A stretch of DNA of 64,000 bases from assembly GCA_963777155.1 (NCBI GenBank), contig CAVZPM010000011.1:25791-89790 (forward strand), written 5' to 3'. The stretch comes from Candidatus Bathyarchaeota archaeon (GTDB lineage: Archaea > Thermoproteota > Bathyarchaeia > Bathyarchaeales > Bathycorpusculaceae). Positions 8,192-26,749 of this stretch are shown here, in pieces (the stretch's first letter is position 1; every line of letters begins with the position of its first letter). The position numbers and the translations under genes were made by a program. Under the pieces are notes generated by a model. That model searched no databases. It was not told the DNA's origin and was given only the letters and a program-made list of their open reading frames with translations.

Positions 8192-9264
8192 TGCCTAAAC
8201 TCTTCTTTTTACTCTCAGGCGAGAACGAGTCGCTGCCAGCCGCAGAAATTAAGGCAATTTTAGAAACAGAAGGCTACACCTACGAGAATGTAGAAGAGTT
8301 TGATCAGGTTCTGCGGTTAGAAGCCGAACTCGAATGTGTTAGAGTTGTTCCAGTCCGTTCCGCTTTCACGCGAGTCTGTGCACAGGAGCTCTTCGTATCC
8401 AACGCAAACATGAGCGACATCGCCAAAATCGCCGCCGGGACAGACTTCAAAAGTATACTGAAACCTGGCGAAAGCTTTGTAGTCCGCATAAACCGAATCA
8501 AAAACTATGCCGACCAAGCCATAAACACCATGACTCTTGAGGTTGAACTGGGCAAACAAATCCTCAGAGCTACAGAGGGCACAAGAGTAAACCTGAAAAA
8601 CCCTGATAAAACTTTTATTGGCATAATAACTAATGAAAAACTTGTTTTAGGATTAAAACTAACCGATATAACCTCCAAAACCTTCTCGGAGCGGCGTCCA
8701 CGCAAAAAACCCTTCTTCCACCCCTCAGCCATGCCATCTAAAATGGCACGATGCATGGTTAATTTGGCACATGCCAAGGCTGAGTCGATTCTGCTGGACC
8801 CTTTTTGCGGCACAGGGACGTCCCTTATCGAAGCCACCTACATCGGCTGCCGAGCAGTCGGCATAGATGCGCAAAAACGAATGATTTTAGGCACCAAAAA
8901 AAACCTACAATTCTTCAACATCGCCGCAGAAGGTCTGGTACATGCAGATTCTCGCAAAATCCCGTTATTAAAAGTTGACGTCATCGTAACTGATCCACCA
9001 TATGGGCGTTCCTCGAGTACACTCAAATCCACTACCAAACAGCTAGTCCAACAAGTCTTAACTACTTCATATGAGCTTCTGGGTTTGGGACAACGGATTT
9101 GTATAGCTTTGCCTATAATGGTGAACGGAGAAGGTAAAATTTTGCAAATGTCTACTGAAGTAAGCGAACTCGTTGAAAATCTTGGCTTTCGCACAATTGA
9201 ATCTCACAAGGTTTTTGTTCACCGATCTTTAACTAGGGAAATCATGGTTTACGAAAAGGAATAG
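8191..9264 (+). CDS. trm11: tRNA (guanine-10-N2)-methyltransferase, THUMP + MTase (Trm11/TrmG10)
   Basis: RPRKKPFFHPSAM, LDPFCGTG, VTDPPYGRS and C-terminal VHRSLTREI; THUMP-like region before the MTase domain. Confidence 0.9.
   Translation: MPKLFFLLSGENESLPAAEIKAILETEGYTYENVEEFDQVLRLEAELECVRVVPVRSAFTRVCAQELFVSNANMSDIAKIAAGTDFKSILKPGESFVVRINRIKNYADQAINTMTLEVELGKQILRATEGTRVNLKNPDKTFIGIITNEKLVLGLKLTDITSKTFSERRPRKKPFFHPSAMPSKMARCMVNLAHAKAESILLDPFCGTGTSLIEATYIGCRAVGIDAQKRMILGTKKNLQFFNIAAEGLVHADSRKIPLLKVDVIVTDPPYGRSSSTLKSTTKQLVQQVLTTSYELLGLGQRICIALPIMVNGEGKILQMSTEVSELVENLGFRTIESHKVFVHRSLTREIMVYEKE
9088..9264 (+). repeat. trm11 3'-end copy 1 (currently fused in frame to trm11)
   Basis: GQRICIALPIMVNGEGKILQMSTEVSELVENLGFRTIESHKVFVHRSLTREIMVYEKE*, 177 bp. 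Confidence 0.9.
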
Positions 9265-9281
9265 CCATTTCTCCTCTATTT

Positions 9282-10370
9282 CTATTCGATCACTGGTTCA
9301 ACCAATACCAGCTTGCCTTTTTCAGTTTGCAGTGTTTGGAGAATTTTTTCGGGGATTTGGATAATTCCTTTGGCGTTAGATTTTGTGTCGTTTATTGCTC
9401 TAAACTTGCAAATGGTCTTTTTGCCATCCGAGGCTTCGATGTTTACCCTTGTGATTTGTTTGCCCTTATAGAGATCGTTCCATCTTGTTATTACTTCACC
9501 GTCGATCCGCACGGTATCAGTTGGTACAAGTAAACCCATGATTTTTTGAACCAAGAACTGATTTTTGGGCGGCTGTGAATGATTAGGTTCAGAACTTAAA
9601 GATACAGGTAGGTCAGTTTTGGATTCAGGATCAGCTATTTTCCCAGTAGGCACAACTTTTTCCTTGGTCCCTTTACGTTGAGGCGTCGGTTTGTTCATTT
9701 GCTCTCGTATTATCATGCCATCTCGCATCTCAAACACTTTACTAGTCATACTAGCAATTGATGGGTCATGAGTAACTATAATGACTGTTGCGCCCTCATG
9801 GTTGGATAGATCTCGGAGTGCGTTTACAACTTCTTTGCCTGTTTTAGAATCTAAGTCGCCTGTAGGCTCATCTGCCAAGACAATGGAGGGCTTGTTTGCG
9901 AGTGCTCTGACAATTGCTACACGTTGTTGCTCTCCACCGCTCAGTTCATCAGGCCTATGATGAATACGATCTGCTAACCCAACCATTTTCAGTAACTCTT
10001 TTGCTCTATTTTCCCGTTCTTTTGATGTTACACCCGCAATTAACATGGGTAATTCGACGTTTTCAATGGCTGATAAGACAGGAATTAAATTATAAAATTG
10101 AAATATGAATCCGATAGTTCTTCGCCGGAGCTCCGTTAAGTCTCTTTCTTTCAGCAGGGTTAGGTCTATTCCGTCAACATAGATTTTGCCTTGGGTGGGT
10201 TTATCCAAAACACCGATTAAATTGAGAAGGGTTGTTTTGCCTGAACCAGAAGGACCCGTAAAAGCGACAAACTCGCCCTTCTGGAGCTCCAAGTTGACTC
10301 CTCTTAAAGCTTGAACTTGGTTTTCTCCAAGTTTGTATGTTTTTTGGACTTCAACGACTTTGACAGACAT
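9282..10370 (-). CDS. ABC transporter ATPase (LolD/MacB type) with an extra C-terminal domain
   Basis: GPSGSGKT, LSGGEQQRVAI, LADEPTGDLD, VTHD, followed by ~140 aa of linker plus a beta-rich domain. Confidence 0.9.
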   Translation of the reverse strand: MSVKVVEVQKTYKLGENQVQALRGVNLELQKGEFVAFTGPSGSGKTTLLNLIGVLDKPTQGKIYVDGIDLTLLKERDLTELRRRTIGFIFQFYNLIPVLSAIENVELPMLIAGVTSKERENRAKELLKMVGLADRIHHRPDELSGGEQQRVAIVRALANKPSIVLADEPTGDLDSKTGKEVVNALRDLSNHEGATVIIVTHDPSIASMTSKVFEMRDGMIIREQMNKPTPQRKGTKEKVVPTGKIADPESKTDLPVSLSSEPNHSQPPKNQFLVQKIMGLLVPTDTVRIDGEVITRWNDLYKGKQITRVNIEASDGKKTICKFRAINDTKSNAKGIIQIPEKILQTLQTEKGKLVLVEPVIE

Positions 10371-10467
10371 TTTTTTGTCCTCAAAACTGTTAAATATGTA
10401 TTGGTCAACGAGTAATCGTAAGGTTGTTTTGATTAAAAAAGGTTAGGGGAACCGAAAAATTGAAGGC
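10329..10467. repeat. ~140 bp direct repeat, copy A (5' end and upstream region of the ABC ATPase)
   Basis: Near-identical to 12266-12406 by direct comparison. Confidence 0.9.
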
Positions 10468-10572
10468 AGAAAAGTCCTTATGTTCGAAAACGAATTTTTG
10501 TGGAGTAGTAATTCATAAAATATATTAGAAAACTACCATGGAAACTAGTGCTGGCAAAGAATAGGTGAGTAG

Positions 10573-10740
10573 ATGAAAAAGACAAATCAGGAAATTGATT
10601 ACGTTGAAGCCATTCTTGCAATGAGAACAATGCTGTCACTAAACCATGCTCATGTTCATAAATCAGACATGAGAGACTTTGTTTGTATCGAGGCTATTAA
10701 TAATAATTGCATAGAACAATCTATCAAAAAGCAAAATTGA
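10573..10740 (+). CDS. Small hypothetical protein (55 aa)
   Basis: AGGTGA RBS upstream; MKKTNQEIDYVEAILAMRTMLSLNH...KKQN*. Confidence 0.35.
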   Translation: MKKTNQEIDYVEAILAMRTMLSLNHAHVHKSDMRDFVCIEAINNNCIEQSIKKQN

Positions 10741-10882
10741 TTGTACTACTAAAGTAACTGTAAAAACAGTATAATAACGACTTATTACTTCTGTATTTCA
10801 TGTTCTGGAATTTCCGACTATGTAAATGAGACCGCAAGTCCTAAGGGCTTTGTTGCTTAGTTAAGTTACCATTGTTTGTGGT

Positions 10883-12079
10883 TCATTTCCTTTGTTTTTT
10901 GATGACTAATACCACGGTGCTTGTAATGGTCGCTACTGCTACTATGGCTGCTATGGCGTAGATTGTTTCTGGAGGTGTAATGTTTGTTGTTGCGTTTGTA
11001 GTTTCAGGCTTCGTCATTGGAGTTGACGTAGGTGCAAGTTTCGGGGTCGGGGTCAAAGTTAGTGGGGACGTTGGAGTTTTTGTTGGGGTGGGAAGCGGTG
11101 TTGGTTCAGCAATTGGAGTAGGTACTGCTGTCGGAGTTGGTGTTGGAGTGGGTGTTGGGGCTTGAGTTGGGGTAGGCGTAGGTGTAGGTGGTTGCGTAGA
11201 CGTCTGAGTCGGGGTAGGAAATGGAGTTGGTGAAGGCGATTGGAAAAACGAGGACAGAAAAGATAGGACCGCAGATAATGTTTCTTGATGTTGCTGGTCA
11301 ACAGTTATATTCGCTGTTTCGCTGCCTACTATTGGGATAAGAGGATCGACTATTCCTTCAACATTAACCATGTTTTGGTCTAAATATTGAATATGGTTTC
11401 CGCCTTGAAGAATCGTCAAATTCTTGTTTGGAGCTTGAAGTTCAGTATTGTAGTATTGGATTGCTGAACTGTACATCGTTTTTTCTTCGCTTCCTAAAAT
11501 TATTTGTATTGGAACAGAAAATGTGGTTGGTTTTGGAAGCGGATACCCTGAAAGGTCAAATGGTGGAGACCATGCTGAAACCGCTCTAATTCTGTTGTCT
11601 GCGGTCGCCGTTACTAAAGCTGATAAGGCACCCAAACTATGTCCCATAGCTATTATTTTGTCGAAGTCTGCTTTTCCAGCAAGTTGCGATTGCATTTCCA
11701 GTGCACTGATGCAATTGAAAGCGGCAATGTAAACAGAAACTCGCTGTGAAATGTTACCTATTAAGTCTGCAAACATTCCGTCTGGAATTTCAAGCATAAC
11801 AAGAATGTAACCTGCATCAGTGAAGGGCCGATACGTCCAACTATACCACGTGTTTGATGAAGCAAAACCGTGAAGAAACAGGATAACTGGAGCTTTAACC
11901 ATACTTGATTTGTAATAGACAGTTGCGTGTCCTGTAAGATAAGTAAAGTTGAATGATTGGTAAGTACCCTGTGAATATACTGGTTTCACATAGACAAAAG
12001 ACAGAGATGCAATCAAGATAATGAGTAACAAAGCAAGAAGTTTTTCACCTGTCCAGAAAGTGGAAGACGTGTTTTTCAC
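10883..12079 (-). CDS. Surface-anchored alpha/beta hydrolase with Pro/Thr linker
   Basis: N-terminal signal/TM, LHGF, GHSLG nucleophile, GGNH, (PT)n linker, C-terminal TM plus basic tail. Confidence 0.85.
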   Translation of the reverse strand: MKNTSSTFWTGEKLLALLLIILIASLSFVYVKPVYSQGTYQSFNFTYLTGHATVYYKSSMVKAPVILFLHGFASSNTWYSWTYRPFTDAGYILVMLEIPDGMFADLIGNISQRVSVYIAAFNCISALEMQSQLAGKADFDKIIAMGHSLGALSALVTATADNRIRAVSAWSPPFDLSGYPLPKPTTFSVPIQIILGSEEKTMYSSAIQYYNTELQAPNKNLTILQGGNHIQYLDQNMVNVEGIVDPLIPIVGSETANITVDQQHQETLSAVLSFLSSFFQSPSPTPFPTPTQTSTQPPTPTPTPTQAPTPTPTPTPTAVPTPIAEPTPLPTPTKTPTSPLTLTPTPKLAPTSTPMTKPETTNATTNITPPETIYAIAAIVAVATITSTVVLVIKKQRK

Positions 12080-12265
12080 TTCTCTGAAACTTAAGTCAAT
12101 TTACTATTGGCGTCATTCTTATATAAAGTTAAATTTGACAATTGTTATCGCATTCTAGATTCCGACTATACTTATGTTTTAAGGTTTATGCCAAATCATA
12201 AATCGACAAGGAGAATAAGAAACGAGGAATTGCGGGTCAAGTCACTAAATACAATTGGTTTGTCG

Positions 12266-12406
12266 AAGTTTGTATGTTTTTTGGACTTCAACGACTTTGA
12301 CAGACATTTTTTTGTCCTCAAAACTGTTAAATATGTATTGGTCAACGAGTAATCATAAGGCTGTTTTGATTATAGAAGGTTATAGGGGAACAGAAAAAGT
12401 GAAGGC
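12266..12406. repeat. ~140 bp direct repeat, copy B
   Basis: Contains an abortive minus-strand MSVKVVEVQKTYKL start identical to the ABC ATPase. Confidence 0.9.
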
Positions 12407-12806
12407 GTCGAAAGCTGGAACTGTTGAATTATTGTTTATTTTTATTTTTGGAATTTTCCATTTTGCCTTGCCGTTTATTTTGACCCCAAATCCCAATGCA
12501 AAAATTAATTTGTTTGTAACGTTGAATATTTCGGACTTTGTGTTTCCTGGATGCTTTACTTTAGCAATCGTAAGTATCATTTTTTATGTAACACATAACC
12601 GTTATTTTGCAGTACTACTTGCATTCCTATACAGCGGAGGAATTTTTTTTCACTTGTTGTATTTTTTAGGTATTGTTGAATCGGTAATTATTGTTCCAAA
12701 CAATATAATTTTGGCTATCGGCATTCCAGTTGATGCATTTGCGGTTGTGGCTACATATGATTATTACCGTCGGGTTCGCTCAATTCCCATGCTATTGCCT
12801 AATTGA
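12399..12806 (+). CDS. Small four-TM membrane protein
   Basis: GTG start after a GGGGA RBS; four hydrophobic segments. Confidence 0.6.
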   Translation: MKASKAGTVELLFIFIFGIFHFALPFILTPNPNAKINLFVTLNISDFVFPGCFTLAIVSIIFYVTHNRYFAVLLAFLYSGGIFFHLLYFLGIVESVIIVPNNIILAIGIPVDAFAVVATYDYYRRVRSIPMLLPN

Positions 12807-15534
12807 TTCAACAATGTTTTGCTTTGAAGCTTTGTTCGCAGGATAAACTGCGCCAATCACTGCAGTTAAGAGGGCAAGGAACAGTGTAATTGTGATGGCG
12901 TCAACGGGTATTATGAAGGCCATTGGGAAACCAGCGACTCGCATGTAGCTAACTGTAACTCTGTGGAACATTAACCCCACAGTAATTCCCATCGCGAAAC
13001 CTACCACGCCGAGGAATGTTGCTTCACCGATTATTGAGGTTATCACTTGGGCTTTGCTCATACCTTGGGATCTGAATATTCCGATTTCTCGGCGGCGCTC
13101 TGCTACATTCATTATCATTATTGCGGCTACACCTATCCCTGCATTTAAAACAGCAAAGGCAACAACGGCGTAAAGTATGTAAAATATTTGGTCAATAGAA
13201 CTCTTTACGCGTTGAACCGCATCATTGTATGTGGTTATGCTTAGCTTGTATTCTTTTCCATAGGAGTCTTGTATGTTATTTTTGGTTTGTTCGATGTTTG
13301 CGTTCTGGTCAATTTTTACGAAGAAGATATTTGCTGTGTCGTTGTAATCAGTAAAAGAAGTGGGAAACGTTTCGTTAAGATTACTATAAGAAATATAGGA
13401 TGCTTCTGAAAGCATAAAGTTCCCGAAGGACATTATGTCCAGCCAAGCTCCCTGTGCAATGCCAACAACAGTGAAATTTTTCCAAGCAAGAACTGGCACA
13501 GTGTAATTGTAATGTACCACAACTTGTTGAGGCCCATAGGGGGTGGAGATTTCTACAACTTGGTCTGCTACGCGGTTTTCGTAATCTAGGTATCGGATTT
13601 TCACTTCATTGCCGACTGAGGCGTTGAGTGAATTAGCTAGCGGGGAAGTCAAAATTATTGTGTTAGGGTCGTTTAGTTTATCGAAAACATTTGATGGTGT
13701 GTCATCGCTAAAAGTCATTAACATAACTTTGGGATAAGAATACGTGTCAATCGCAAGTACAGTTGAGGAAGAATTTATTGGTGTAGAAGATGCGTTATTT
13801 TGTATTATGGTTTGGTCAGGAACTACAAGAAGCGGCGTAGTGGCGTTTACTGTTGAGAGATTTGTGATATTATCGGCAAAAGATTTTTGGTATCCTGCCA
13901 TCGGAGATAACCGTCAAATCTGAGCTTGAAAAAGAACGAATTACATTTTCAACGCCGGCTACTGTGCCGACTTGTGCTCCGCTCATGACTACAACTAAGC
14001 TCAATGACATACCGATGAGTGCGAAACAAATGGTGCTTCTAAGGAGGTTACGTTCTACGTTTCGCGAAATAATTTTTCTAGTTTTGCCGAATCCGAATAG
14101 GCTGCGTTCTATTACTGGACCGCCGCTCCTCAGTAAGCCAGCTACAAGCAGGGTTACTCCAAGCATGGCTATTGGAGCAAGTGCTGATACCACGTATAGA
14201 CCAATACCGTATTGGGAGAATATGTCAAACCATACAAAGATGAATGCGCCAAAAATTGTGAGAGGTAATCCAATTAGAACAAGTTTTATTGCTGTTCTTT
14301 GTTTACCTGGTTTTCTCATCGATGGACGTAGAGCATTGATTATATCTGTTCTACATGCTGATAATGATGGAAAAAGTCCGCCTATCATTACTGTCAGTAA
14401 ACCTGCTGCAGCGCCTAGGATAAGATGCTGTCCAGTTGTTGACGGCAAAACAAATTTGAATTCGATTCCTGGTGAGAAGGGTTGGAAGATTTTGGAGGTT
14501 AAATAGCGGAAAATGTCTGTTACAAATAATCCTAGAACAAGCCCTATGGCTACGCCAATTAGTCCTAAGATGAGGCTTTCTGAGAAGAATATCCAGAAAA
14601 TCTGTCTTGTTGAGGCGCCTTGCGAACGTAATATGCCGATTTCGTGGGTGCGCTCACCAATGTTCATGTACATAGTGTTTAGAACGATGACTATGGCGAC
14701 ACAAAGCGCCATTACTGACATTATTTGTAGGCCACTTTGTAAACCCACAGTTGCTCTGCTTACGATCGCCAGAACGCTTTCTTTTACTGGGTTAACTATA
14801 TAGTCGCTGCCTAATTTGTTGTTGAGGTCATTAACGATATTGGTTGTTTGTTTTGAATTCAGAAGTTTAATGCTAACAGAGTTGATTTTCTCTGTAGCGT
14901 TTAGCATCGTCTGAGCTTTTGTTAAGTCAACATAAACTCGGTATCCAGTATACCCTTGACCAAATACTCCTCCGTATTGATTTTCAAATTGACTGGAATG
15001 GTATAGGCCTACGACTTTAAGAGTGTAGTTTTCTGATTGAAATGTTGGGAAAGAGCCGGTTTCAACAGTAATTTCAAATTCTTGCCCCATAGTGTAGTTT
15101 AGTCTGTCATCAACTACTGCCTCTGAACTGTTGATTGGCAGATGCAATTGACCAGTGATGTTTGTTGCTAAAGAATCAGAATAGTCAAAGTCAGAGGTGG
15201 TGTTAACCCCTATTAGCGTAGTGCTAACCCAATCTTGAGGTTCAGAAGCGTTGGCTCGGCCATTTAGTCTTCCATAGTAATCTCCAATACCTGCTGTTTG
15301 GTTTATTGTGGTTAAAATTGTTTGGTTGAAGGGCAAATTTAAGCCTGATCTGACGCTTATGTCAACGTTTCCTATGGCTTGATTGACGGTGGAGCCGAAT
15401 TGGTCATAGACGCTGTCAAAAGCTATGTTGACGCCTACTATTAACGTAACACCCAGGATTACGGCAATAATTGTTAAGGAGTTACGGAGTTTACGCTTGG
15501 GAATGTTCCTTAAAGCTATTGTAGTAAAGGACAA
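12792..15534 (-). CDS. FtsX/MacB-like ABC permease (double FtsX), one frameshift near 13885
   Basis: Two ERxxEIGxxRSQG motifs. ORFs 13870-15534 and 12792-13901 join at a homopolymer run (DGRIPK/SFADN). Confidence 0.88.
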
Positions 15535-15706
15535 AGGGGTTTCCTCCTTTCCCTGTTATAATGTGGATCAGTTTTCAGTTATTGAAAGTGGTATTTTGTT
15601 ATATTTAAGAGTTAAATACTAAGATTTATATAGTAAATTTGGGGAGCGAGGAAGCTAATTGCTTCCTTAGTGATGCTTTGGCTTTGAAAGGGGTAGTTTG
15701 TAGAAG

Positions 15707-16702
15707 ATGTTTACGAACCTTAAAATCGGAACGTATGATTTTCTTGGAAAACGTGAATACTTCAAAAACAGACAATTGAAGAAACAGTGGACTTCAATGG
15801 CTCTCATCGGGGAGGATGGCGATGCTATTGAAACTGTAACTCGATGTCCCACGTGGTTTTCTTCTCTTATTTCGGGAGCAACAACTTATTTTCTTAGAGG
15901 TCAAGGTGTTGCTGGATTGGTTGATTTAGCTTATCCTATGGCGAATCCACTATTTGGTGATTTATTTGTTAGCCAATTTAAAATTGGCAAGGTCGATGCG
16001 ACATTGGTGCCTAGTTTTGTGCCCCTTGCGGTTACAGAGGTAAAACCTCTCGAAAAGAGTGTCGTGGTGTCCTACAAGGGAATAGGTGGAGGACCTGATT
16101 TGATTAAATTAATGTCAAGTGGCGCTTTAAGTTGTACTGAACGACCTTCAAATCCAAATGGCAGAGCGTTTGATACTGAATATAGACTTTACAGGAAGGT
16201 TGTTATTGGTGTAGATGATACCGATTCAGCGGCTAAGGGTGCAACTTTTAACACAGCAGTGCAATTGGCTTCGATTCTAGATAGGGCATCTAGTGATTAT
16301 CATTTTCTGAGGTTAACGTTGTCATTTAATTGGCCTGCTAATCCTGTAAAGACTACCAATAATGCCTCTTCAGGGTTGGTTTTTGCTGTTACTCCAGGAA
16401 AAGAAGAGGAGTTAATTCGAGATTTTGAAGGGTTAATTAGAAAACATTCGATTTCCAAGGAAACTGGAATGGTTGTTAATAAAAATGTTCGTGCACCTGA
16501 GGTTCTTAAGAATTATTCGAGGAAGGTTAAGAGAGAGCAAGTTAGTGTTTCTGAAGCGTTCAAAGCAGCAGAGCAAGCTGGTGTTAGAGCCATACCAATA
16601 ACTGGTGAGCGGGGTTTAATTGGAGCGTTATCAGTGGTAGGTTTAGTTGATGATACTGAAGAGGCTATTACCCCAGTCACGAAGGATGTACCAGTTGGAT
16701 AG
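15707..16702 (+). CDS. Divergent methanogenesis-marker-11-like protein with TiaS-type GxDDTD domain
   Basis: SYKGIGGG, VVIGVDDTDSAAKGAT, KTTNNAS and TGERGLIGAL follow the Mmp11/DUF1743 pattern. Confidence 0.7.
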   Translation: MFTNLKIGTYDFLGKREYFKNRQLKKQWTSMALIGEDGDAIETVTRCPTWFSSLISGATTYFLRGQGVAGLVDLAYPMANPLFGDLFVSQFKIGKVDATLVPSFVPLAVTEVKPLEKSVVVSYKGIGGGPDLIKLMSSGALSCTERPSNPNGRAFDTEYRLYRKVVIGVDDTDSAAKGATFNTAVQLASILDRASSDYHFLRLTLSFNWPANPVKTTNNASSGLVFAVTPGKEEELIRDFEGLIRKHSISKETGMVVNKNVRAPEVLKNYSRKVKREQVSVSEAFKAAEQAGVRAIPITGERGLIGALSVVGLVDDTEEAITPVTKDVPVG

Positions 16703-18771: not shown

Positions 18772-18892
18772 CTTCCTGAAGTTAATTGCCCTGGTGGCAG
18801 GTACAAGGGAGTTGAAAACTGCGATGCTATCTCTTTAATTTGAACGGTTAAAAGCCTTACGATTATACTCTGCGCTGAGGTGGGGCACCAAA

Positions 18893-19246
18893 TTATTTCA
18901 GATAGATATCCAGATTTGTTTCTCCTACTGTAAGCTCAGGAAATGTCGCGATCAGCTGTTTTGCTAATTCAGCTATTATCATTTTAACTCCCTCTGTTTT
19001 CTCAACTTCAATCTTTGGATAAAGCCTAACGACAACTCCATCGTTTCTTCCAGATATCATTGTAAGGAAAACGGTCTTCTTGCCAGCATCAATAGCTAAC
19101 GAATCTATAAGTATCACGTTTTTTTCTCGCTCAAGATAAACATCCGTTGTCTTTAGAATGCTGTTTTCATTTCTCATCATCAACGGTTTTAATTCTTTGA
19201 AAATGTCCTCGATTGCAGCTTCACCATTTAAAACAACATGAGGCAA
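18893..19246 (-). CDS. Hypothetical protein
   Basis: TTG start after GGAGGAG; LPHVVLNG...VVRLYPKIEVEKTEGVK. Confidence 0.6.
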   Translation of the reverse strand: MPHVVLNGEAAIEDIFKELKPLMMRNENSILKTTDVYLEREKNVILIDSLAIDAGKKTVFLTMISGRNDGVVVRLYPKIEVEKTEGVKMIIAELAKQLIATFPELTVGETNLDIYLK

Positions 19247-19417
19247 AACAACTCCTCCATTTTTAAAATGATAAGGGGAAGCAAATATTAGATTTTCCAA
19301 TCTTAAAAACAAATAACCAAACAAACAACACAAGACGTGGCTAGATAAGAAGGCTTAAGAAACAGGCACACCTCTCCTTTTTCAATCATCAACTCGAGAG
19401 CATATCGAGGGCGTTAG

Positions 19418-20401
19418 ATGAGGGAATTCTCGAAACCTGTTGTAGTAGTTTCAAAATGTATTACTTTTGAACCTGTTAGATGGAATGGCCAAATAATAGC
19501 TAGCGAATTCGTGGAAAAACTTAAGCCCTATGTAAATTTTATCCCTGTTTGTCCAGAAGTTGAAATAGGACTTGGCGTGCCCCGCGACCCTGTCAGAATA
19601 GTATTAGTAAACGGAGAAAAAAAACTCCTGCAACCAGCAACAGGTTTCGACTTCACAGACAAAATGACAAAGTTCTCGGAGTCTTTCTTGGATTCCTTGG
19701 ATGCAGTTGACGGTTTCATACTCAAGAGTGTCTCTCCGAGCAGTGGTTTTAAAAATGTAAAAGTTTATCCAAGCATCGAAAGAGTCTCGTCAATAGAGAA
19801 AGCCCCTGGCTTCTTTGGGGGAGCAGTTCTTCAGAAATTTCCAAATTTGGCAATTGAAGATGAGCGCCGCCTGCTTAATCCAAGGATAAGAGAACATTTT
19901 CTTACGAAACTTTTCACTTTAGCTAGTTTTAGAGAAGTAAAAAAATCTGGGAAAATCAGAGATCTGGTCAAATTTCAATCCGATAACAAATACTTGTTTA
20001 CGGCTTACAATCAAACAGAGCTAAGAATCTTGGGAAAGTTGGTGGCAAACCAGGAACACAAAGCTTTTGATGAAACAATGATGAGTTATGAGACTCACTT
20101 GTATTCTGCTTTGGCGCGTACTCCCAGTGCTGGCGCGAACATAAATGTCATGTTAAAGATAATGGGTTATTTCTCACATCAACTTTCAAAGGATGAGAAA
20201 TCCTTCTTCCTTAATTCTGTCGATAATTACAGGGCAGGAAGGTTGCCCTTGAGTGCATGCTTGAACGTTTTGAAGGCTTGGATAGTTAGGTTCAAACAAG
20301 AATACTTATCGAGTCAGACTGTGCTTGAACCTTATCCTGAACAGCTTGCAGAACTGGAAACTGTTTTCTCAGAGGTTGATGGAAAGAACTATTGGAAATA
20401 G
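19418..20401 (+). CDS. DUF523 (TudS)-DUF1722 fusion, YbgA/RudS-like thiouridine desulfidase family
   Basis: SKC, VCPEVEIGLGVPRDP, KSVSPSSG, EDERRL, GYFS and YLSSQTVLEPYP. Confidence 0.88.
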   Translation: MREFSKPVVVVSKCITFEPVRWNGQIIASEFVEKLKPYVNFIPVCPEVEIGLGVPRDPVRIVLVNGEKKLLQPATGFDFTDKMTKFSESFLDSLDAVDGFILKSVSPSSGFKNVKVYPSIERVSSIEKAPGFFGGAVLQKFPNLAIEDERRLLNPRIREHFLTKLFTLASFREVKKSGKIRDLVKFQSDNKYLFTAYNQTELRILGKLVANQEHKAFDETMMSYETHLYSALARTPSAGANINVMLKIMGYFSHQLSKDEKSFFLNSVDNYRAGRLPLSACLNVLKAWIVRFKQEYLSSQTVLEPYPEQLAELETVFSEVDGKNYWK

Positions 20402-20423
20402 AAAACATGAATGAATAGGCAAC

Positions 20424-21345
20424 TTAATCAAAGTTATTTTTCAAAAAATTGTGCACTCGCTCGTCTTTTATTGCCAAGTTAATTGCTTTGATGGCGCTTT
20501 TTTCTTTATCTTTGATCTCCAACATTATATCGAAGTCGAAGGGTTCAGTTTCTTTCAATAACAGGTCAAAATCTTCTATATCAATTGTCTCGGAATGTTG
20601 TCTTGGCAATCCATTAGGTTCTTGAGAGCTGTAGTCAACCATTGGAATTCCATCTCTTTTTTCATTCCATGTCTTTGTAGTAAGCTTGAAAGATTCCTCA
20701 GTTGTCTGGTTCCCTGAATTGTTGAGTTTGTGATGAAAGACATCAAAAAGAATTGGAATTTGGATTTGTGCATTTATTTTTAGGCAGTCGTTCAAATCGT
20801 ACAAGTTTATCGTCGTTCTCGATTACTAAGCGGCGAATTATTGAATCATCAAGCACACCGAATCTTGTTACAAATCTCTCCATGCTTTTCTCTTTGTCTC
20901 CGTAAGCTCCGCCGACGTGGATTTGAATCTTTGCCGATGTATCTAGTTTCATCAAGTCAAGTATTTGGGCGTGATATTTGAGTTCATTTTTGCTTCTTTC
21001 GAAAATATCCTCTTTAATTGAGTTAATTAGGGTGAACTGGTCTGGATGCATTGAGATTCGCATTCTATTTTTGGTAATGAACTCGCCGATTTCTTCAAAC
21101 TCTTCTTGGAAATGCTCTTGCCAGTTGAACTTATTTATTGGATGAGACGCAAAAGGGACTAAGTCTGAGGAAATTCTAAAAAAGAATAGCCTATGCTCAA
21201 GATTGAACTGCAAGATTCTTCTCAAGCAGTCTAGGTTATTTTTCACTGTCTGCTTAAGTCGGGTTTCAGAGTAAGATTTTAGCCGAAAAGTGCTGTTTGC
21301 GGTGCAGTCAATAGTTCTATTGATACAAGGATAACCTATTCTCAT
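20424..21345 (-). CDS. uvsE: UV DNA damage endonuclease (frameshift near 20803)
   Basis: RIGYPCIN, FFRISSDLVPFASHP, SMHPDQFT, IENDD, FDVFHH and DIMLEIKDKE, split over two ORFs. Confidence 0.92.
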
Positions 21346-21471
21346 TACTCATCCTTCTTCCTTAAACTTAATTGATCATCTGTCTTAAAGCTCTCCATTT
21401 TCGTAGTCAACGCAGAATAATCTTGCCTGGATGATGAGTACTCTAAAAAAGGAGAAGGGATAATTTAGTAA

Positions 21472-21960
21472 TTGCTGGTGTTAGAAATGACGAAGGTAGA
21501 GATGCCGAAAATGAAAGAAAACGAGATCGAAGAACTAATTAGAGAACAATTCCTTTGTCGAATAGCTTTCAAAGGTGACTTGCAGCCTTACATCGCTCCT
21601 TTTCAATACGCTTATGTTAATGGTATTCTTTACTTTCATTTCACTGATTATGGGAAGAAGATGAGTTTTTTCAAGCAAGAAACTCCAGTTTGCGTGGAAA
21701 TTGAACGATATACTCCAAATCTTAGCGAATATGGGTTCGTGGTGCTTACTGGAAAACTAAGATTGGTGGAGAATCGAGAAGAAAGGAAACTGGCTATTGA
21801 AAAGATGGCTGAAGTGGGCAAACAGAAAATTTCAAAAAACTTTCTGTTGGCTCATGGCTTTTCCATGGGTTCCGATTGGAGCGATTTTACTGTAGACAAA
21901 CCGATTTTGATAATAAAGCTTGATGAAGTGACTGAAAAGATAGGGCTCAAGTCACCTTAG
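21472..21960 (+). CDS. Pyridoxamine 5'-phosphate oxidase-like FMN-binding protein (NimA-like)
   Basis: CRIAF, PYIAP, LYFH, GKK, PVCVEI split-barrel pattern. Confidence 0.8.
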   Translation: MLVLEMTKVEMPKMKENEIEELIREQFLCRIAFKGDLQPYIAPFQYAYVNGILYFHFTDYGKKMSFFKQETPVCVEIERYTPNLSEYGFVVLTGKLRLVENREERKLAIEKMAEVGKQKISKNFLLAHGFSMGSDWSDFTVDKPILIIKLDEVTEKIGLKSP

Positions 21961-22063
21961 CTTACCACTAAAACTATTGTAAGCCAGAGCTCGCAAACTA
22001 AAATTTGTGCATTATCATATTTCAAAAGAGCGCAAAAGTATTTGAGAATCAAGTTTTGACTTA

Positions 22064-22975
22064 TTGATGAATGTTCTTGCAGGAGCTATGACCATGAACG
22101 AAATGAAAGGGAAAATATGCATTATAACTGGGAGTAATTCTGGAATAGGGAAAGAAACTGCAATAAGTTTGGCAGAGATGAGTGCATCCGTTGTCATGGT
22201 CGTGCGTGATCAAGAACGAGGTGAGAAAGCTCGAAGAGAAATAGTCAAACAAACCGGAAACAATTCAATCGATTTAATGATCTGTGACTTATCTTCTATG
22301 GATTCAATCAGGCGCTTCGCAAAGGAATTCAAAAGGAAATACGACAGACTCGATGTGCTAGTTAACAATGCTGGAGCGATATTCAATAAGCGAGAGGTTA
22401 CTTCAGAGGGCTTTGAACGAACCCTTGCCGTTAATTATTTAGGGCCGTTCCTGCTCACGCATGAGCTGCTGGATTTGCTGAAATCAAGTGCTCCTTCCAG
22501 AATAATCAATGTAAGTTCTGGACTTGCCAAAAATGGCAAGGTAGATCTTGAAGATCTCCAGAGTGAAAAGAACTATGCGGGAACGAAAGCTTATGCACGC
22601 GTGCGGGCACCAGTTTACGCTAACACTAAACTGATGCTAATGATGTTCACTTATGAACTAGCTAGGCGGCTGAAAGGATCAGGGGTAACAGCAAACGTGC
22701 TCATGCCTGGTTTTGTAGCAACAAATCTTGGGAAAAACAGTGGCAGACTAAGTTCGTCTCTTATGTTCAAAATGGTCCGTCCAATGCAGGTAAGTGCCAA
22801 GAAGGGAGCGGAAACGTCTGTTTACTTAGCCTCCTCAGACGACGTAAGGGATGTAACCGGAAAATGCTTGGTTAAGAAAAAGGAAGTAATGACTTGCCCT
22901 GCATCATACGATGAAGGACTGCAAAAACACTTGTGGAAAAAGACGGAGAGCATGCTCGGATTAGCTCCGGAATAG
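22064..22975 (+). CDS. SDR oxidoreductase (retinol dehydrogenase/WWOX-like subgroup)
   Basis: TGSNSGIG, CDLSS, NNAG, VNYLGPFLLT, catalytic YANTK, PGFVAT. Confidence 0.9.
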   Translation: MMNVLAGAMTMNEMKGKICIITGSNSGIGKETAISLAEMSASVVMVVRDQERGEKARREIVKQTGNNSIDLMICDLSSMDSIRRFAKEFKRKYDRLDVLVNNAGAIFNKREVTSEGFERTLAVNYLGPFLLTHELLDLLKSSAPSRIINVSSGLAKNGKVDLEDLQSEKNYAGTKAYARVRAPVYANTKLMLMMFTYELARRLKGSGVTANVLMPGFVATNLGKNSGRLSSSLMFKMVRPMQVSAKKGAETSVYLASSDDVRDVTGKCLVKKKEVMTCPASYDEGLQKHLWKKTESMLGLAPE

Positions 22976-23019
22976 AAAAGGGGAGCGTTAGGACTAAACA
23001 TAAGAAATATTAGTTTAAT

Positions 23020-23301
23020 TTGAAAGCAGTAGATATGGAGAAAACAGAAATGACCAAAGGGAAATTAGAGAAAACAATTGTCGATCCCTACTTACCCAGC
23101 AAGATTGTTCCTCCTGAGTATATTCGGGATGTTTTGCATGAAGCAAATAACGATTTTCCATCAATTGAGTTTGAATATGAACTACCCCACAAATGGAAAG
23201 ACGAAGAGTACAAGAATCGATACGAGGAATTGGAGCGCCAAATGATGGAAGTTTTAAACTGGCGGTCTCGTTGGTTCGGAAAGCTGGATGCAAACAAATA
23301 G
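23020..23301 (+). CDS. Small hypothetical protein
   Basis: Charged 93 aa ORF with protein-like composition. Confidence 0.5.
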   Translation: MKAVDMEKTEMTKGKLEKTIVDPYLPSKIVPPEYIRDVLHEANNDFPSIEFEYELPHKWKDEEYKNRYEELERQMMEVLNWRSRWFGKLDANK

Positions 23302-23348
23302 GCGAAACGCAGCTTTATTTTTAAACTCGACTAATATGCTTAAAGAAA

Positions 23349-23855
23349 TCAGTTCACGTTGAGTGTTTGCCGTGGGATGTAGCCTATTTTTTTCAAGGAC
23401 ATGTCGATGAATTCGATCTTCTCAGGCTCAACTCTTACTAGTTCTACCCCTGTCTCTGGGAATGTCTTAAGGCCAAGTTCCCTAGCAGTTTTTTCCCATT
23501 GATATGCTGCCAAGCCTTCTTTAAATTCGATCGAGTTCTCTCTGAAAATTATCTTTGCTTTTCCTGTGATTTGTGCTCCTTTGGCGCTGTCCCAACCTTT
23601 GTATGGGAAGAAAATGCCGATGCTGACGTTGGGGTTCTTCTTCATATTTTCCAGTTTTGTGCCTGGTTCACCCACGAAGTAAATAGTGATTCCTTTGGAG
23701 CGATACTCAATCGGTGTAGCCCTAGGACGCCCATCGCCACATGTCGCAAGCACACACATATTCTGTGCCTTAAGAAACTCAATAATGCGCTCCTCCAAAA
23801 CTTTGGTTGGCATGGATTTCTTAACGAATGTTTGACCTCTTGATTCAGAACTCAT
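23349..23855 (-). CDS. Pyridoxamine 5'-phosphate oxidase-like protein
   Basis: CVLATCGDGRPRATP, TKLENMKKNPNVS, GAQITG. Confidence 0.85.
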   Translation of the reverse strand: MSSESRGQTFVKKSMPTKVLEERIIEFLKAQNMCVLATCGDGRPRATPIEYRSKGITIYFVGEPGTKLENMKKNPNVSIGIFFPYKGWDSAKGAQITGKAKIIFRENSIEFKEGLAAYQWEKTARELGLKTFPETGVELVRVEPEKIEFIDMSLKKIGYIPRQTLNVN

Positions 23856-24055
23856 AACACTACACCCTACATTTTCTTATTTAGCAATTTTTTCTATTTA
23901 GGGATAGCGATTCCGAATGGACTCGCAGGATTATTCGCACTGCTAACCTATCTACAAAAAGTAAACAGACTCTAAATCAAAGGTATTGCGTCGTCTGTCA
24001 CAAAAAGAAGCCTTTTAGCCTTAGAAAGCAGCTTAATGAATAGGAGAAGGTGTAA

Positions 24056-24793
24056 TTGCGTAGACGCTACAAAATACTGATAATTGTTCTGCTTGTTGCC
24101 TTAGTGATTTTCACAGGGTTCATTGTGTGGGCTGAAACCCCCCCATCGCCAATGAAGCAAGCCATCAACGCATTACAATCCGATTCAAACGTCACAGTGA
24201 TAAGTGGTCAATGGTTGACTTTTAAACCCACAACCACCAATTACACTACAGGCTTGATTATTTATCCCGGTGGAAGGGTAGATTACCGTTCATATGCACC
24301 GCTTGCTCATGCAATAGCTAATGAAGGATACTTGACAATTATTGTGCCTATGCCTCTTAATTTAGCGGTCTTTGGGGCTAATGCAGCAAACGACGTAATC
24401 GCATCTCACCCAGAGATTACCTCTTGGGCCATAGGCGGTCACTCTTTAGGTGGAACCATGGCTGCACAGTATACCTATCAGAACCCATCGAAAGTACAAG
24501 GACTTGTACTCTGGGCGGCATATCCTGCATCGGGAAATAACCTATCAAAATACGATCTGCTAGTAACTACTGTTCACGGTAGTAACGATGGATTGGTCAG
24601 TACTTCCCAAATACAGACTTCTCTGGAGATGCTTCCCCCAACAACAGTTTATGTTGAAATAGCGGGAGGAAACCATGCGCAATTCGGATATTATGGCGAT
24701 CAATCAGGAGACAATCAGGCGATAATAACAAGAGAAGCTCAACAAAGCCAAACGTTAAACGTGACAGTAGAATTATTGCAGAAAATCAAGTAA
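24056..24793 (+). CDS. Membrane-anchored alpha/beta hydrolase
   Basis: YPGGRV, GGHSLGG, GSNDG, GGNHAQFGYYG. Confidence 0.9.
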   Translation: MRRRYKILIIVLLVALVIFTGFIVWAETPPSPMKQAINALQSDSNVTVISGQWLTFKPTTTNYTTGLIIYPGGRVDYRSYAPLAHAIANEGYLTIIVPMPLNLAVFGANAANDVIASHPEITSWAIGGHSLGGTMAAQYTYQNPSKVQGLVLWAAYPASGNNLSKYDLLVTTVHGSNDGLVSTSQIQTSLEMLPPTTVYVEIAGGNHAQFGYYGDQSGDNQAIITREAQQSQTLNVTVELLQKIK

Positions 24794-24849
24794 CTTCAAG
24801 GGCAGGAATTCATCTAAACATGCCTTGTTGACACGCTTGATTTTGAAGG

Positions 24850-25362
24850 CTAAAGTTCTACTTCTATGGCTACTTCGTTTCTGCGCACAAACCAAGGGGT
24901 AAAAGGTCCATTGTATCGCATCGTAAACACTTGACCAACAGTTTTAATTCCTGCTTTTGTGAGCTCTTCAAGCATTTCTTTAGATTTCTTTTTGAATATT
25001 GAATTTGACCAACGACCTGAAAACTTTAGCGCAGCAACGACTCTTTCAGGTATTTCCACAATTTTAACACGTTCATCAAGTGGCTCAGGCGTGGTTTCAA
25101 GCGTTAACCCTTCAGGCATCACAAAACCTATTGAATCAGATTCAGACAAAACCGGTGCCGTCATGGCTATTTGCTCCGAAACAACAGGCGCTGTCATCGC
25201 AATTTTAGACTTTTGCCTGTTATTGCCCGTGATGAAACTAAAGAGAAGGTTAAAGCCACCATCGCCGTAACCATCAACCCTAGCGATCACCAAACTTGGA
25301 TAACGTCTAATCTCAACAATGTTGATTTCTCTTAGAACTTCATATTTTGCCTGCTCAACCAT
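24850..25362 (-). CDS. SOUL heme-binding protein
   Basis: EIRRYP, FITGNN, KIAMTAPV repeat, FVMP, PWFVRRNEV. Confidence 0.9.
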   Translation of the reverse strand: MVEQAKYEVLREINIVEIRRYPSLVIARVDGYGDGGFNLLFSFITGNNRQKSKIAMTAPVVSEQIAMTAPVLSESDSIGFVMPEGLTLETTPEPLDERVKIVEIPERVVAALKFSGRWSNSIFKKKSKEMLEELTKAGIKTVGQVFTMRYNGPFTPWFVRRNEVAIEVEL

Positions 25363-25557
25363 AATCCCATACTAGAAACCATCTAAATATATTGATTTTC
25401 TTGAGCGTTCTAGCTTGGACAAAAATAAGAGACCTGAATTAAACAGAGACGTAGCTGATTTTAAATTTCCGCCAGAAGCTTCCTCAGCTTCAGAAGCGAC
25501 CGTTAGGCTAATTAATCTAAAACACCGAAAGAGAAACAGGAGAAAGGAGGAATAATT

Positions 25558-26389
25558 ATAAATTACAAAGAAAGACAGGAAATAATTGCCAAATCGCCCA
25601 TATCTCTTGGGTATCTGAAAAAGTTCAACTTAGGCGCAGGAACACTGCAACTGATAAATGGTATTGTAATTCTGGCATTGACTTTTCTTTTAACTTGGCC
25701 TAAAGGAACAGACATCTACACCTTCTACCTCACATTCGCCCATGTTAGTCCAACAAACCCCGCAATTTTCGCAGCACCAAACCCACAAGTCCTCTTCACC
25801 GTAACTCATCTGGGGCTGTTACTTGCAGCTTTCCCGCTTATCTCAGCACTTGCACATTTCACTGATTGCTTTTCCAAAGAACAAAGCATACAACGAAAAC
25901 CTCAAAAAAGGCATGAACCCCTACCGATGGTACGAATATGCTTTCTCAAGTTCGATAATGATCTGGATAATTGCCACCTTCGTGGGAATCTGGGACTTCT
26001 GGTCACTCGCAATGATATTTGTGCTCAACGCCATGATGATAATGTTTGGCTACCTCATGGAACTGGTAAATCAGAAAACGGAGAAAACAAACTGGTCATC
26101 GTTCCTTCTGGGTTGCATATCTGGCGGTTTTCCCTGGGTTGTTCTGTTTGCTTACTTCGGAGGAGCTGTAGCCTCAAGTGCAGGCAGTGTTCCAAACTTC
26201 GTTTATGTGATATTCGTTGTATATCTGGCGCTTTTCATGAGTTTCGCGGTCAATCAAGTTCTGCAGTACAAGGCTGTTGGAAAATGGAGAGATTATCTTT
26301 ATGGCGAAAGAACCTACATTGTCCTTAGTTTCGTAGCGAAAACATTTCTGGTTTGGTTAGTGTTTATTGGTTTATTCAGACCATTCTAA
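25558..26389 (+). CDS. heR: Heliorhodopsin (frameshift near 25861; non-ATG start)
   Basis: NPYRWYEYAFSSSIM, FGYLME, LQY, GERTYIVLSFVAK (retinal Lys). The N-terminal part reads ..KKFNLGAG..SALAHF after an AGGAGG RBS. Confidence 0.92.
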
Positions 26390-26599
26390 CCTCCCCACTT
26401 TCTTTTTAATAAATAGAAGCATAATTCAACTAACCTATGGGGAAAAACTGGTTATTCTACCAAGTATTACGCTCTATTGCCATTTGCCGTTTGCTAGTTT
26501 AAACCGAATCTGAACTACACGTCAGTCCTCACACCCAATCCTGCACATCTTTGAGAGAAGACTGTCATGTGTATCTTTTGGTGCAATGAAGAATTAGTG

Positions 26600-26749
26600 G
26601 GGCAACTTATTTGTATCGCTTCCCCCAAAACATTAAACATAACCCGTCTTGGCGCCGAATTGGGCTTTAGACATGTTGAATCCCACTTTGCCTATGTCCA
26701 TCGGAGCTTGACGCGAGAGATTGCAGTGTTTGAAAAGGTGACAGAATGA
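26600..26749 (+). pseudogene. trm11 3'-end copy 3 (likely ancestral, coupled to rnz)
   Basis: GQLICIASPKTLNITRLGAELGFRHVESHFAYVHRSLTREIAVFEKVTE*; its stop overlaps the rnz ATG (ATGA). Confidence 0.92.

Follow-up and report, generated by a model that had tools for sequence, protein, structure and literature searches.

The window, a stretch of 64,000 nucleotides, comes from the genome of a member of the Bathyarchaeia (designated G000), a metagenome bin of 39 contigs and 2.29 Mb with 90.6% completeness and 3.8% estimated contamination. Within it, trm11 and rnz are separated by an interval of 17.3 kb that holds two gene cassettes and two additional copies of the 3' end of trm11 (Table 1). The gene on the left, prs, adjoins trm11 at every locus read that extends upstream of trm11. 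The trm11 product possesses THUMP, UPF0020 and N6_N4_Mtase domains by profile scan; its best solved relative is the Trm11 of T. kodakarensis (5e71, E 2.7e-31), and 6zxw also matches (E 7.7e-26). The TIGR01177 model gave 251 bits, under its cut-off of 316.55, and the DPPYG motif is invariant in the Trm11 sequences compared. Judged by domains and homology, the protein is predicted to be an archaeal Trm11 (tRNA guanine-10 N2 methyltransferase). Its body shares 70-84% identity with the bodies of relatives.

Table 1. Features of the trm11-rnz region, in window positions
Feature	Position	Strand	Remarks
prs (ribose-phosphate pyrophosphokinase)	7208-8191	+	conserved left neighbour of trm11
trm11	8191-9264	+	open frame, 357 codons; sole full copy in the window
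trm11 body (codons 1-299)	8191-9087	+	host-derived
Tail 1 (attL)	9088-9264	+	58 codons, element type, fused to trm11
Cassette 1	9265-18594	both	9.3 kb; without integrase
Orphan tail 2	18595-18771	+	58 codons, element type, frame still open; junction of cassettes 1 and 2
Cassette 2	18772-26599	both	7.8 kb; without integrase
36-nt motif	18786-18821	+	left edge of cassette 2
Right arm of cassette 2	26475-26590	+	truncated copy of a repeat of about 205 nt dispersed in the genus; abuts the att core
Orphan tail 3 (attR)	26600-26749	+	ancestral 49-codon host end, frame still open
rnz (RNase Z)	26746-27666	+	ancestral right neighbour of trm11

Tails 1 and 2 are each 177 nt long with the stop included and are identical at 37 of 58 residues and 117 of 177 bases (66% in DNA), and tail 3, with 150 nt, is nine codons shorter. 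A core ATTTGTAY is common to all three at the junction, reading ATTTGTAT at 9097-9104 in tail 1 and at 26609-26616 in tail 3, and ATTTGTAC at 18604-18611 in orphan tail 2. Upstream of the core, similarity to the trm11 body vanishes. The motif HRSLTRE is written with different codons in the three tails, and orphan tail 3 ends in ATGA, through which it overlaps the start of rnz. The positions, lengths and residue identity of the tails, their common junction, the overlap with rnz and the motif had been reported in a preliminary description of this DNA and were reproduced here. No further copy of the tail was found beyond the three places in a search of the whole 2.29-Mb assembly. The 8-mer core is by itself common, with six plus-strand matches in the window; the protein-level tail matches extend over 150-177 nt with E values of 1e-18 and 3e-6, far beyond chance.

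Cargo and edges of the two cassettes

The cassettes contain 8-10 ORFs each, on both strands. Cassette 1 encodes a MacB-type ABC ATPase, a PT-rich alpha/beta hydrolase, two FtsX permeases, a TiaS/Mmp11-like protein, a membrane protein and a secreted protein. Encoded in cassette 2 are a DUF523/DUF1722 protein, a split UvdE, two PNPOx-like proteins, an SDR, an alpha/beta hydrolase, a SOUL protein and a frameshifted heliorhodopsin. Note that the frameshifts in UvdE and heliorhodopsin may be assembly errors instead of decay. The block of cassette 1 was found at loci other than trm11 in at least 12 genomes (68-88% nucleotide identity) and that of cassette 2 elsewhere in at least 12 genomes (82-96%), and the ends of the relatives' blocks nearly coincide with the ends of the G000 cassettes. 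To judge from these sequence matches, the cargo consists of accessory gene blocks that appear to be exchanged between species at other loci as well. When it was compared with the cargo of four intact elements from relatives, only the ABC ATPase and the FtsX protein matched, at 36-43%.

The 36-nt motif of cassette 2 recurs in a gene-less mini-cassette of the relative G109 and also beside two copies of the dispersed repeat, and contigs from two metagenome runs leave the window sequence exactly at 18786, as loose ends. On the other side, the right arm is a piece of the dispersed repeat, and no integrase start is present there. No inverted repeat was detected at the cassette boundaries among the 25 longest of 99 pairs.

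The trm11-rnz interval and its integrase in related genomes

The preliminary description had proposed comparing the trm11-rnz interval across relatives. We carried this out with 119 other genomes of the genus, all Bathyarchaeia MAGs, and found the outcome it had named as support: some alleles are uninterrupted, and others have orphan tails that differ in number and start at one shared junction. The ancestral order, as given by the comparison within the genus, is prs-trm11-rnz with a 49-codon tail. Of the 24 other genus genomes in the first sample, 17 have rnz directly after a short-tailed trm11, as do all five loci read in other families of the order. Orphan tail 3 is 69-86% identical to the short tails fused to trm11 in uninterrupted alleles, which bears out its earlier reading as the ancestral trm11 end. 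Across the genus, a tail match was obtained in 111 of 120 genomes; the short tail lies in a frame of at least 300 aa in 68 and the long tail in one of at least 350 aa in 35. In at least 35 genomes the 58-codon tail is fused to trm11 and followed by an island, as expected if each element repairs the gene with the tail that it brings. An island of 0.2-31 kb is present at every one of the 19 occupied loci read, in 18 genomes. The displaced short tail, predicted to remain downstream, is still recognisable ahead of rnz in 17 of the 19; none was seen in G015 and G096. Three tails are present at seven loci (G000, G128, G076, G096, G124, G109 and G117). Insertion at one fixed site, as first suggested, is supported by the core, which lies at the same place in 17 of 20 orphan tails (17 genomes); G013 and the third orphan of G096 begin the core differently, and the third orphan of G124 has none. 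The sequence upstream of the core in orphan tails is unrelated to trm11. Islands that are small (0.4-4.6 kb), lack an integrase and have a tail of their own occur in G010, G023, G013, G015, G019, G130 and G109, and in G020 the element tail is still fused to trm11 with the element almost entirely gone.

No recombinase was found in either cassette by Pfam scans of their 20 ORFs, in agreement with the preliminary description; PF00589 had no match in the whole G000 assembly, and the relatives' integrase gave no tblastn match in the window and none in the whole genome at E <= 1e-5. In seven relatives, however, a tyrosine recombinase of about 420-460 aa is encoded directly beside the short orphan tail, next to attR. 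It is intact, with an ORF of 434-459 aa, in G122, G093, G066, G128 and G076 and truncated or stopped in G107 and G046, and integrase pseudogene pieces lie beside both orphans of G124 and of G117. Where intact, the integrase gene occupies the right end of the element; its start lies some 45 nt from the core, and transcription runs away from the core. PF00589 scored 28.5 bits against the protein of G122 (cut-off 27.1) and only 18 bits against that of G128, and the archaeal XerA model gave E 2.4e-8, far below that model's cut-off. Nine integrase sequences share invariant R, K, HxxR, W and Y columns. A sequence search of the PDB returned no match; the top Foldseek matches of a predicted model (mean pLDDT 69.8) are XerA, Cre and lambda Int, with E 2e-6. 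Catalytic residues, profiles and the fold match of the model together identify the protein as a tyrosine recombinase.

Long and short tails form two distinct classes, nine codons apart by an insert, and element and host tails share about 45-50% of their residues. Among fused long tails dN/dS is 0.17, and tails 1 and 2 differ by dN 0.30 and dS 1.49. The claim that each tail has been selected as protein therefore stands for their past as fused ends; it fails for the orphans of relatives, of which five of the seven read contain stops or frame breaks. The tail has a history separate from that of the gene it completes. Tail 1 is most similar to the tails of G130, G019, G020 and G076 (69-81%), the closest fused tails being those of G130 (81%) and G019 (76%), and the trm11 bodies of these four genomes are among the five least like that of G000 out of 18 compared (70-74%). 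G022 pairs with G000 on the rnz tree, yet has an uninterrupted allele. Occupied and uninterrupted alleles are interspersed on this tree, where well-supported branches force at least three changes and parsimony gives 10; in this hand-chosen sample, enriched for occupied loci, the allele label was no more clustered than in 99 of 500 shuffles. Independent gains and precise excision would each fit this scatter. No excision junction and no free or circular form was seen in metagenome-run contigs, among which no run holds the organism (best word share 0.18), and no tail was found in viral contigs.

Origin of the array

We consider the trm11-rnz interval of G000 to be the remains of two site-specific integrative elements that lie in tandem at one att site, with a probability of roughly 80%. 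The att site lies most likely inside codons 302-305 of trm11, with the core ATTTGTAT. Elements of this family would carry their own 58-codon trm11 end just right of the core, so that recombination at the core would join the host trm11 body to the element tail and keep the frame open. The 49-codon host tail would be moved to the far end of the element and stay ahead of rnz. Another round of recombination at this core, using either hybrid site, would give three tails and two cassettes. The recombining enzyme would be a tyrosine recombinase of about 435-460 aa, of the kind found in the relatives. The G000 cassettes are classed as remnants rather than complete members, since an integrase lies next to an att site in relatives and none was found in the window. 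Both would have lost it and would therefore now be fixed or dependent on help. That they are integrase-less remains of integrative elements is the most likely reading because of the pattern across the 119 relatives. The preliminary description had left it open whether the integrase was lost or mobilisation occurred in trans; loss fits best, because the relatives form a series from intact through truncated integrases to scraps.

Several observations speak against this reading. The G000 cassettes contain neither an integrase nor a recognisable scrap of one, and we therefore infer from the relatives that they descend from integrase-bearing elements; the route of their cargo is likewise inferred. 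The cargo has almost nothing in common with that of the intact elements, the right arm of cassette 2 is a repeat piece and not an integrase start, and no free form or excision junction was seen. Moreover, the cargo consists of blocks that are present at other chromosomal loci of many relatives, which simple decay does not predict. The time order once proposed for the array is not supported: in G128 and G076 an intact integrase-bearing element adjoins rnz and a small integrase-less cassette adjoins trm11. The position of a cassette does not date it, since a newcomer at attL or at attR yields the same final map.

Alternatively, the integrase-less cassettes would be non-autonomous units moved in trans by an integrase encoded elsewhere, and trm11 a platform that collects them, a functional analogue of an integron. 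Each unit would combine the 58-codon tail with a short motif on the left and, on the right, an arm from the dispersed repeat; modules such as the heliorhodopsin/UV block of G000 or the urease island of G121 would be acquired through the repeat, and the integrases would be those of resident or visiting full elements. The right arm might act as a promoter that keeps rnz expressed once it is severed from trm11. Consistent with this are the many occupied loci with small integrase-less islands, each with its own tail, and the adjoining of such a cassette and an intact integrase-bearing one in G128 and G076. The same right arm, joined identically to the core, is found at G000, G121, G109 and G011 with unrelated cargo, and the gene-less cassette of G109 (0.38 kb) has both the left motif and the right arm of G000 cassette 2. 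However, this arm belongs to a repeat present at many unrelated loci and may be irrelevant to recombination, and the left motif is present at only two of 19 trm11 loci. G000 has neither a PF00589 match nor a homologue of the family's integrase, and therefore nothing on hand that could move the cassettes now. The integrase scraps beside the orphans of G124 and G117 show that decay occurs, and the frequent breaks in host orphans beside small islands point to old events. We regard both movement in trans and the composite unit as unlikely.

Less probable still is an origin of the array by ordinary rearrangement. The end of trm11 could have been partially duplicated in tandem in place, with later divergence or gene conversion, and the DNA between the tails could have entered by ordinary rearrangement that involves no site-specific recombination; the cargo blocks are ordinary accessory blocks of the chromosome that are found elsewhere in relatives, and the repeat at block edges could support homologous recombination. 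Nevertheless, 17 genomes whose islands differ share one stretch of nucleotides as the junction, and an integrase is located there in seven genomes. The dS of about 1.5 between tails 1 and 2 is as large as that between tails of different species, the insert sets long and short tails apart as classes, and on the tree uninterrupted alleles are intermingled with occupied ones. Slightly less credible still is a chimeric assembly of trm11 ends from co-occurring strains, although the fragmentation and estimated contamination of the bin (39 contigs, 3.8%) would allow for one. The tail copies are only 66% alike in DNA and therefore too divergent for an assembler to join. Moreover, two- or three-tail architectures are found at 18 other loci, including contigs of 0.36-2.5 Mb, and an independent metagenome-run contig bridges orphan tail 2 into cassette 2 (18587-18960).

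Comparison with known systems and significance

The preliminary description had called the array integron-like. Both line up several cargo units at one recombination site by a fixed gene, but integrons do so with an intI/attI/Pc platform and attC sites, which the trm11 array lacks. At its head are prs and the trm11 body, and PF00589 has no match in the genome. Integron cassettes end in attC sites and are mostly single promoterless ORFs in one orientation, whereas the boundaries at trm11, and so its repeat unit, are coding gene ends and the cassettes are multi-gene (7.8-9.3 kb), run in both orientations and have their own recombinase when intact. The two G000 cassettes are not an integron. Closer is the tandem accretion of islands and proviruses at one att site in a tRNA gene, where each brings a copy of the gene end and older elements lose the integrase and decay. 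Re-use of the site, an own gene-end copy per element and integrase loss in older ones are common to both. In contrast to a tRNA gene, trm11 encodes a protein, and the swap may also alter the host enzyme; the duplicated segment is therefore under protein constraint while fused (dN/dS 0.17).

In E. coli, e14 integrates within the 3' part of icd, an alternative end keeps the gene open, and the original end is the icdC fragment, according to PMC13626634, which cites Hill et al. 1989. On this account, e14 and phage 21 at icd and the trm11 elements are alike in that a tyrosine-recombinase element lies inside the 3' part of a housekeeping gene, with a supplied end that keeps the gene open and the original end left downstream as a pseudogene fragment. 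The e14 replacement makes two substitutions according to PMC13626634, whereas the trm11 tails share about 45-50% of residues and differ by the nine-codon insert. The trm11 case further differs in its archaeal host, its target, up to three stacked tails, and the presence of the element version in about a third of the genus species. Of 68 integrated elements of thaumarchaea, 14 occupy the 3' end of a protein gene, and arrays formed at a single site have been noted (PMC6563490). These elements resemble those at trm11 in their tyrosine recombinases, in insertion at gene 3' ends with the frame rebuilt by element sequence, and in arrays that arise from re-use of one site. Their att sites are described there as short exact repeats (13 bp in the example) with a few nucleotides and the stop replaced, whereas at trm11 the replaced coding sequence amounts to 175 nt. 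The target genes named in the passage of PMC6563490 consulted do not include trm11. The trm11 array is a new example of this known kind, represented by e14 at icd and the thaumarchaeal 3'-end elements.

The genus comprises widespread soil and peat Bathyarchaeia, and in about a third of its species an element family has replaced the final sixth of a conserved enzyme of tRNA modification. We know of no genetic tools for this class of archaea, for which the elements offer a defined att core together with the corresponding integrase family. Accessory traits collect in the trm11-rnz interval, a hotspot that holds heliorhodopsin and UV repair in G000; relatives have urease, defence genes, surface proteins and a thermosome there. 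If the platform reading were true, it would constitute an archaeal functional analogue of the integron, based on a protein-coding gene. The long and short tails make up a natural experiment on the C-terminal strands of Trm11.

The trm11 gene, its tails and the locus in relatives

Three copies of the trm11 tail were found in the window, and a search of the whole G000 assembly revealed no further copy. All of them open with an ATTTGTAY core, at 9097, 18604 and 26609, upstream of which the likeness to trm11 ends. The complete gene matches Trm11 of T. kodakarensis (5e71) with an E value of 2.7e-31 up to the final residue; its predicted model is poor (mean pLDDT 66.7, below 50 in the methyltransferase core), with the tail modelled as a strand, a helix and a final hairpin. 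Orphan tail 3 lies within a 60-codon ORF (26567-26749) that has its own ATG and ends in the overlap with rnz. This ORF could still be translated, which would keep translational coupling to rnz. No tRNA gene was detected in the trm11-rnz interval, and among seven related loci two hold a tRNA-Ser that has no connection with the site and the rest hold none; a tRNA target is therefore excluded. An Rfam scan of window 7000-29000 gave no match at E <= 1.

Coordinates of trm11, its tails and the dispersed repeat (window positions unless a genome and contig are named)
Feature	Position	Strand	Remark
Complete trm11	8191-9264	+	THUMP and class I methyltransferase domains
Tail 1, last 58 codons of trm11	9088-9264	+	recurs as orphan
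Orphan tail 2	18595-18771	+	copy of the closing 58 codons of trm11
Orphan tail 3, 49-codon version	26600-26749	+	stop overlaps rnz start in ATGA
Copies of the ~205-nt repeat	L096-L107, e.g. G093:C6:1417950-1418950, G114:C6:367500-368500

The order prs-trm11-rnz, followed by a TIM-barrel gene in reverse, is kept across the order. A 345-codon trm11 with the tail type of copy 3 and rnz directly behind it, which is the uninterrupted site, is present in all five loci of other families and, within the genus, in 17 of the first 24 other genomes sampled. A tail match was obtained in 111 of 120 genus genomes surveyed. Full-length frames among the 120, counted as survey rows, number 35 for the long (58-codon) tail and 68 for the short (49-codon) tail. 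The island follows the long tail in all 19 occupied loci read (18 genomes), with size ranging from 0.2 kb in G020 to ~31 kb in G128. The short tail is orphaned immediately before rnz in 17 of these 19 loci, and no old short tail was seen there in G015 or G096. Seven loci are three-tailed (G000, G128, G076, G096, G124, G109 and G117). The 20 orphans from 17 genomes do not resemble trm11 to the left of the core; the core is at the same place in 17, starts differently in G013 and in the orphan G096_o3, and is absent from G124_o3. The preliminary description of the window was accurate in each detail checked (among them the three tails, their lengths, the shared junction and the ATGA overlap), and the comparison of the interval across relatives that it proposed as a check brought out both uninterrupted alleles and variable numbers of orphan tails at one junction.

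Several loci display particular arrangements. On contig C25 of G020 (L044, 1720-2057) a long element-type tail is fused to trm11 and rnz is only 337 nt away, a gap that includes a 22-codon scrap of the old tail; here the element is gone and its tail is retained on trm11. G015 possesses two whole prs-trm11-island-rnz copies, on contigs C23 and C21 (L042, L043), with 92% identical trm11 products and identical rnz products, denoting either a strain mix in the bin or a large duplication. Long-type orphan tails away from the trm11 body, prs and rnz were found in G118:C12 (L086), G072:C4 (L087), G088:C2 (L088), G002:C4 (L045) and G012:C13 (L046), and may be what rearrangements between att sites left behind, or remains of arrays that the assembly broke up. 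In G121 (C8:153000-169500, L059) the trm11 locus has a 12.8-kb island that apparently encodes urease subunits and accessory proteins together with membrane proteins like ammonium and urea transporters, gene calls that are based on ORF sizes and N-terminal sequences only.

The integrase of related elements

Both cassettes of G000 lack an integrase as well as the backbone genes of the intact elements. PF00589, matched in 113 of 120 genus genomes, has no match in the G000 genome, and a homologue of the relatives' integrase is also absent from it. Among five large-island genomes examined, weak PF00589 matches exactly adjoin the short orphan in G122, G093 and G128, and the matching ORFs are homologous proteins of 434-459 aa. 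Genus-wide searches and searches of fetched loci found this integrase intact beside an orphan in these three genomes and in G066 and G076, truncated in G107 and disrupted in G046; integrase fragments with stops flank both orphans in G124 and in G117. The gene starts ~45 nt from the core and is directed away from it. The archaeal XerA model (E 2.4e-8) identifies the protein as a tyrosine recombinase, as do the conserved R, K, HxxR, W and Y columns of its alignment and a predicted fold (model pLDDT 69.8) that corresponds to those of XerA, Cre and lambda Int (Foldseek E 2e-6). Against PDB sequences the integrase profile gave 0 matches.

Four intact elements share the 3-5 kb next to the integrase and differ in the remainder. 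The cargo of the G128 element includes GmrSD-like, ATPase, GNAT, NUDIX, thermosome and type I restriction genes. Four paralogous integrases (46-48%) were found in genus genomes, two of them with one common flank. Five predicted viral contigs from IMG/VR carry further paralogues (46-53% identity) close to their ends, with no trm11 tails beside them; nor did any long tail turn up when viral contigs were scanned with an eight-sequence long-tail alignment. Among the sequencing runs searched, all in the form of contigs, none has more than 0.18 of the words of window 8800-18790. The contigs of four runs are short pieces from relatives, with no tail-tail joint and no circle; they bear neither on excision nor on the assembly, except for one contig that bridges window 18587-18960.

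Contents of the two cassettes

Cassette 1, between tails 1 and 2, encodes an ABC exporter, a hydrolase, a TiaS/Mmp11-like protein and two further proteins, one of the membrane and one secreted. The block that these genes form also occurs at loci other than trm11 in at least 12 genomes with 68-88% nucleotide identity, and the block of cassette 2 (DUF523/DUF1722 to heliorhodopsin) occurs elsewhere in at least 12 genomes with 82-96%. The genes flanking these copies match G000 at only 66-80%, so that the blocks have the look of recent exchange or of unusual conservation. The block in G091 ends within ~50 nt of the left end of cassette 2, and its right arm stops ~10-15 nt short of the core.

Cassette 2 ends on the right in an arm (26475-26590) that is a truncated copy of a sharply bounded ~205-nt repeat. 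By blastn this repeat occurs at dispersed sites in 13 of 120 genus genomes, in as many as five copies per genome, and the copies are ~80% identical to one another. At least two variants exist, one of which runs on into the 36-nt motif opening cassette 2; the part of the repeat within the window has no Rfam match, and the repeat may be a MITE, an RNA or a recombination site. The same truncated arm adjoins the core in G121, G109 and G011 with unrelated cargo, and in G109 a gene-less 0.38-kb cassette combines the left motif of cassette 2 with its right arm. Block copies at other loci, the shared arm and this mini-cassette are not predicted by simple decay of integrated elements, and it is on such facts that two less likely readings are based, namely that the units were mobilised in trans and that trm11 serves as a platform for collecting cassettes.

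A direct repeat of 124 nt with 95% identity (10322-10445 and 12259-12382) brackets a PT-rich hydrolase gene in cassette 1. The stretch 10850-12248 is absent from one metagenome contig, and the order of ATPase and hydrolase is reversed in G119; the hydrolase gene looks like a nested insertion or a rearrangement within the cassette. The 362-aa ABC ATPase ends in 96 codons (9283-9571, minus strand) that lie outside the ABC domain and are missing from the G119 copy of the block. With a 76% nucleotide paralogue on contig C1 and matches of 74-83% in at least 13 genomes, they may be an ordinary domain, and their interpretation as a captured host fragment is not favoured. In cassette 2, UvdE (20424-21345, minus strand) is encoded in two overlapping ORFs that correspond to Pfam positions 15-187 and 189-266, split by either a frameshift or an assembly error. 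Heliorhodopsin (25678-26389) is in two frames with a shift near 25861-25870; its G091 copy is one ORF of 236 aa, and one base at 25861 is missing from some metagenome contigs. It is either a pseudogene or the product of an assembly indel.

History of the tails and order of arrival

The median dN/dS is 0.17 for fused long tails (17 sequences; dS near saturation) and 0.09 for short tails (11 sequences). Long tails fused to trm11 are under purifying selection. Orphan tails decay: five of the seven read in relatives have stops or frame breaks, and the reading frame is still intact in both G000 orphans and in four further long ones. Tails 1 and 2 differ by a dN of 0.30 and a dS of 1.49, a distance like that between tails of different species, and are not recent duplicates. 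The tails closest to tail 1 belong to G130, G019, G020 and G076 (69-81%), of which the trm11 bodies are among the five least similar to that of G000 in 18 compared (70-74%). Only this ranking was used, as body and tail identities gave Spearman coefficients of -0.29 for tail 1 and +0.33 for tail 2, neither significant with n=18 related rows. On the rnz tree the partner of G000, G022, has an uninterrupted allele, and the two kinds of allele, occupied and uninterrupted, are mixed across the tree; at least three changes are required by well-supported branches and parsimony counts 10, in a sample enriched for occupied loci that gives no frequency estimate.

With a host site B-O-B' and an element site P-O-P', a second element may enter at attL (B-O-P'1), at trm11, or at attR (P1-O-B'), before rnz. 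Either entry gives one element behind its own B-O-P', a P-O-P' hybrid between the two elements, and P-O-B' behind the other. Position in the array is no clock, because the two entries yield identical maps. The rnz-proximal element is the intact one in G128 and G076, which suggests that newcomers always enter at attR; however, small units mobilised in trans and entering at attL would explain both loci equally well. The observation of the preliminary description is confirmed and its interpretation partly supported: uninterrupted alleles and orphan tails at one junction agree with it, and neither the integron-like character nor the time order of the array is supported.

The mechanism is like that described for e14 and phage 21 at icd and for thaumarchaeal elements in gene 3' ends, and arrays at a single site are already known (PMC13626634, PMC6563490). 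Among the papers searched none gives trm11 as a target of integration, though a listing in a supplementary table is possible; the one MGE paper among them that contains 'Trm11' (PMC11529989) mentions an unrelated ParB-Trm11 fusion. The novelty lies in the host class and target gene, in the integrase subfamily, in how long and divergent the replaced end is, and in how far it has spread through the genus.
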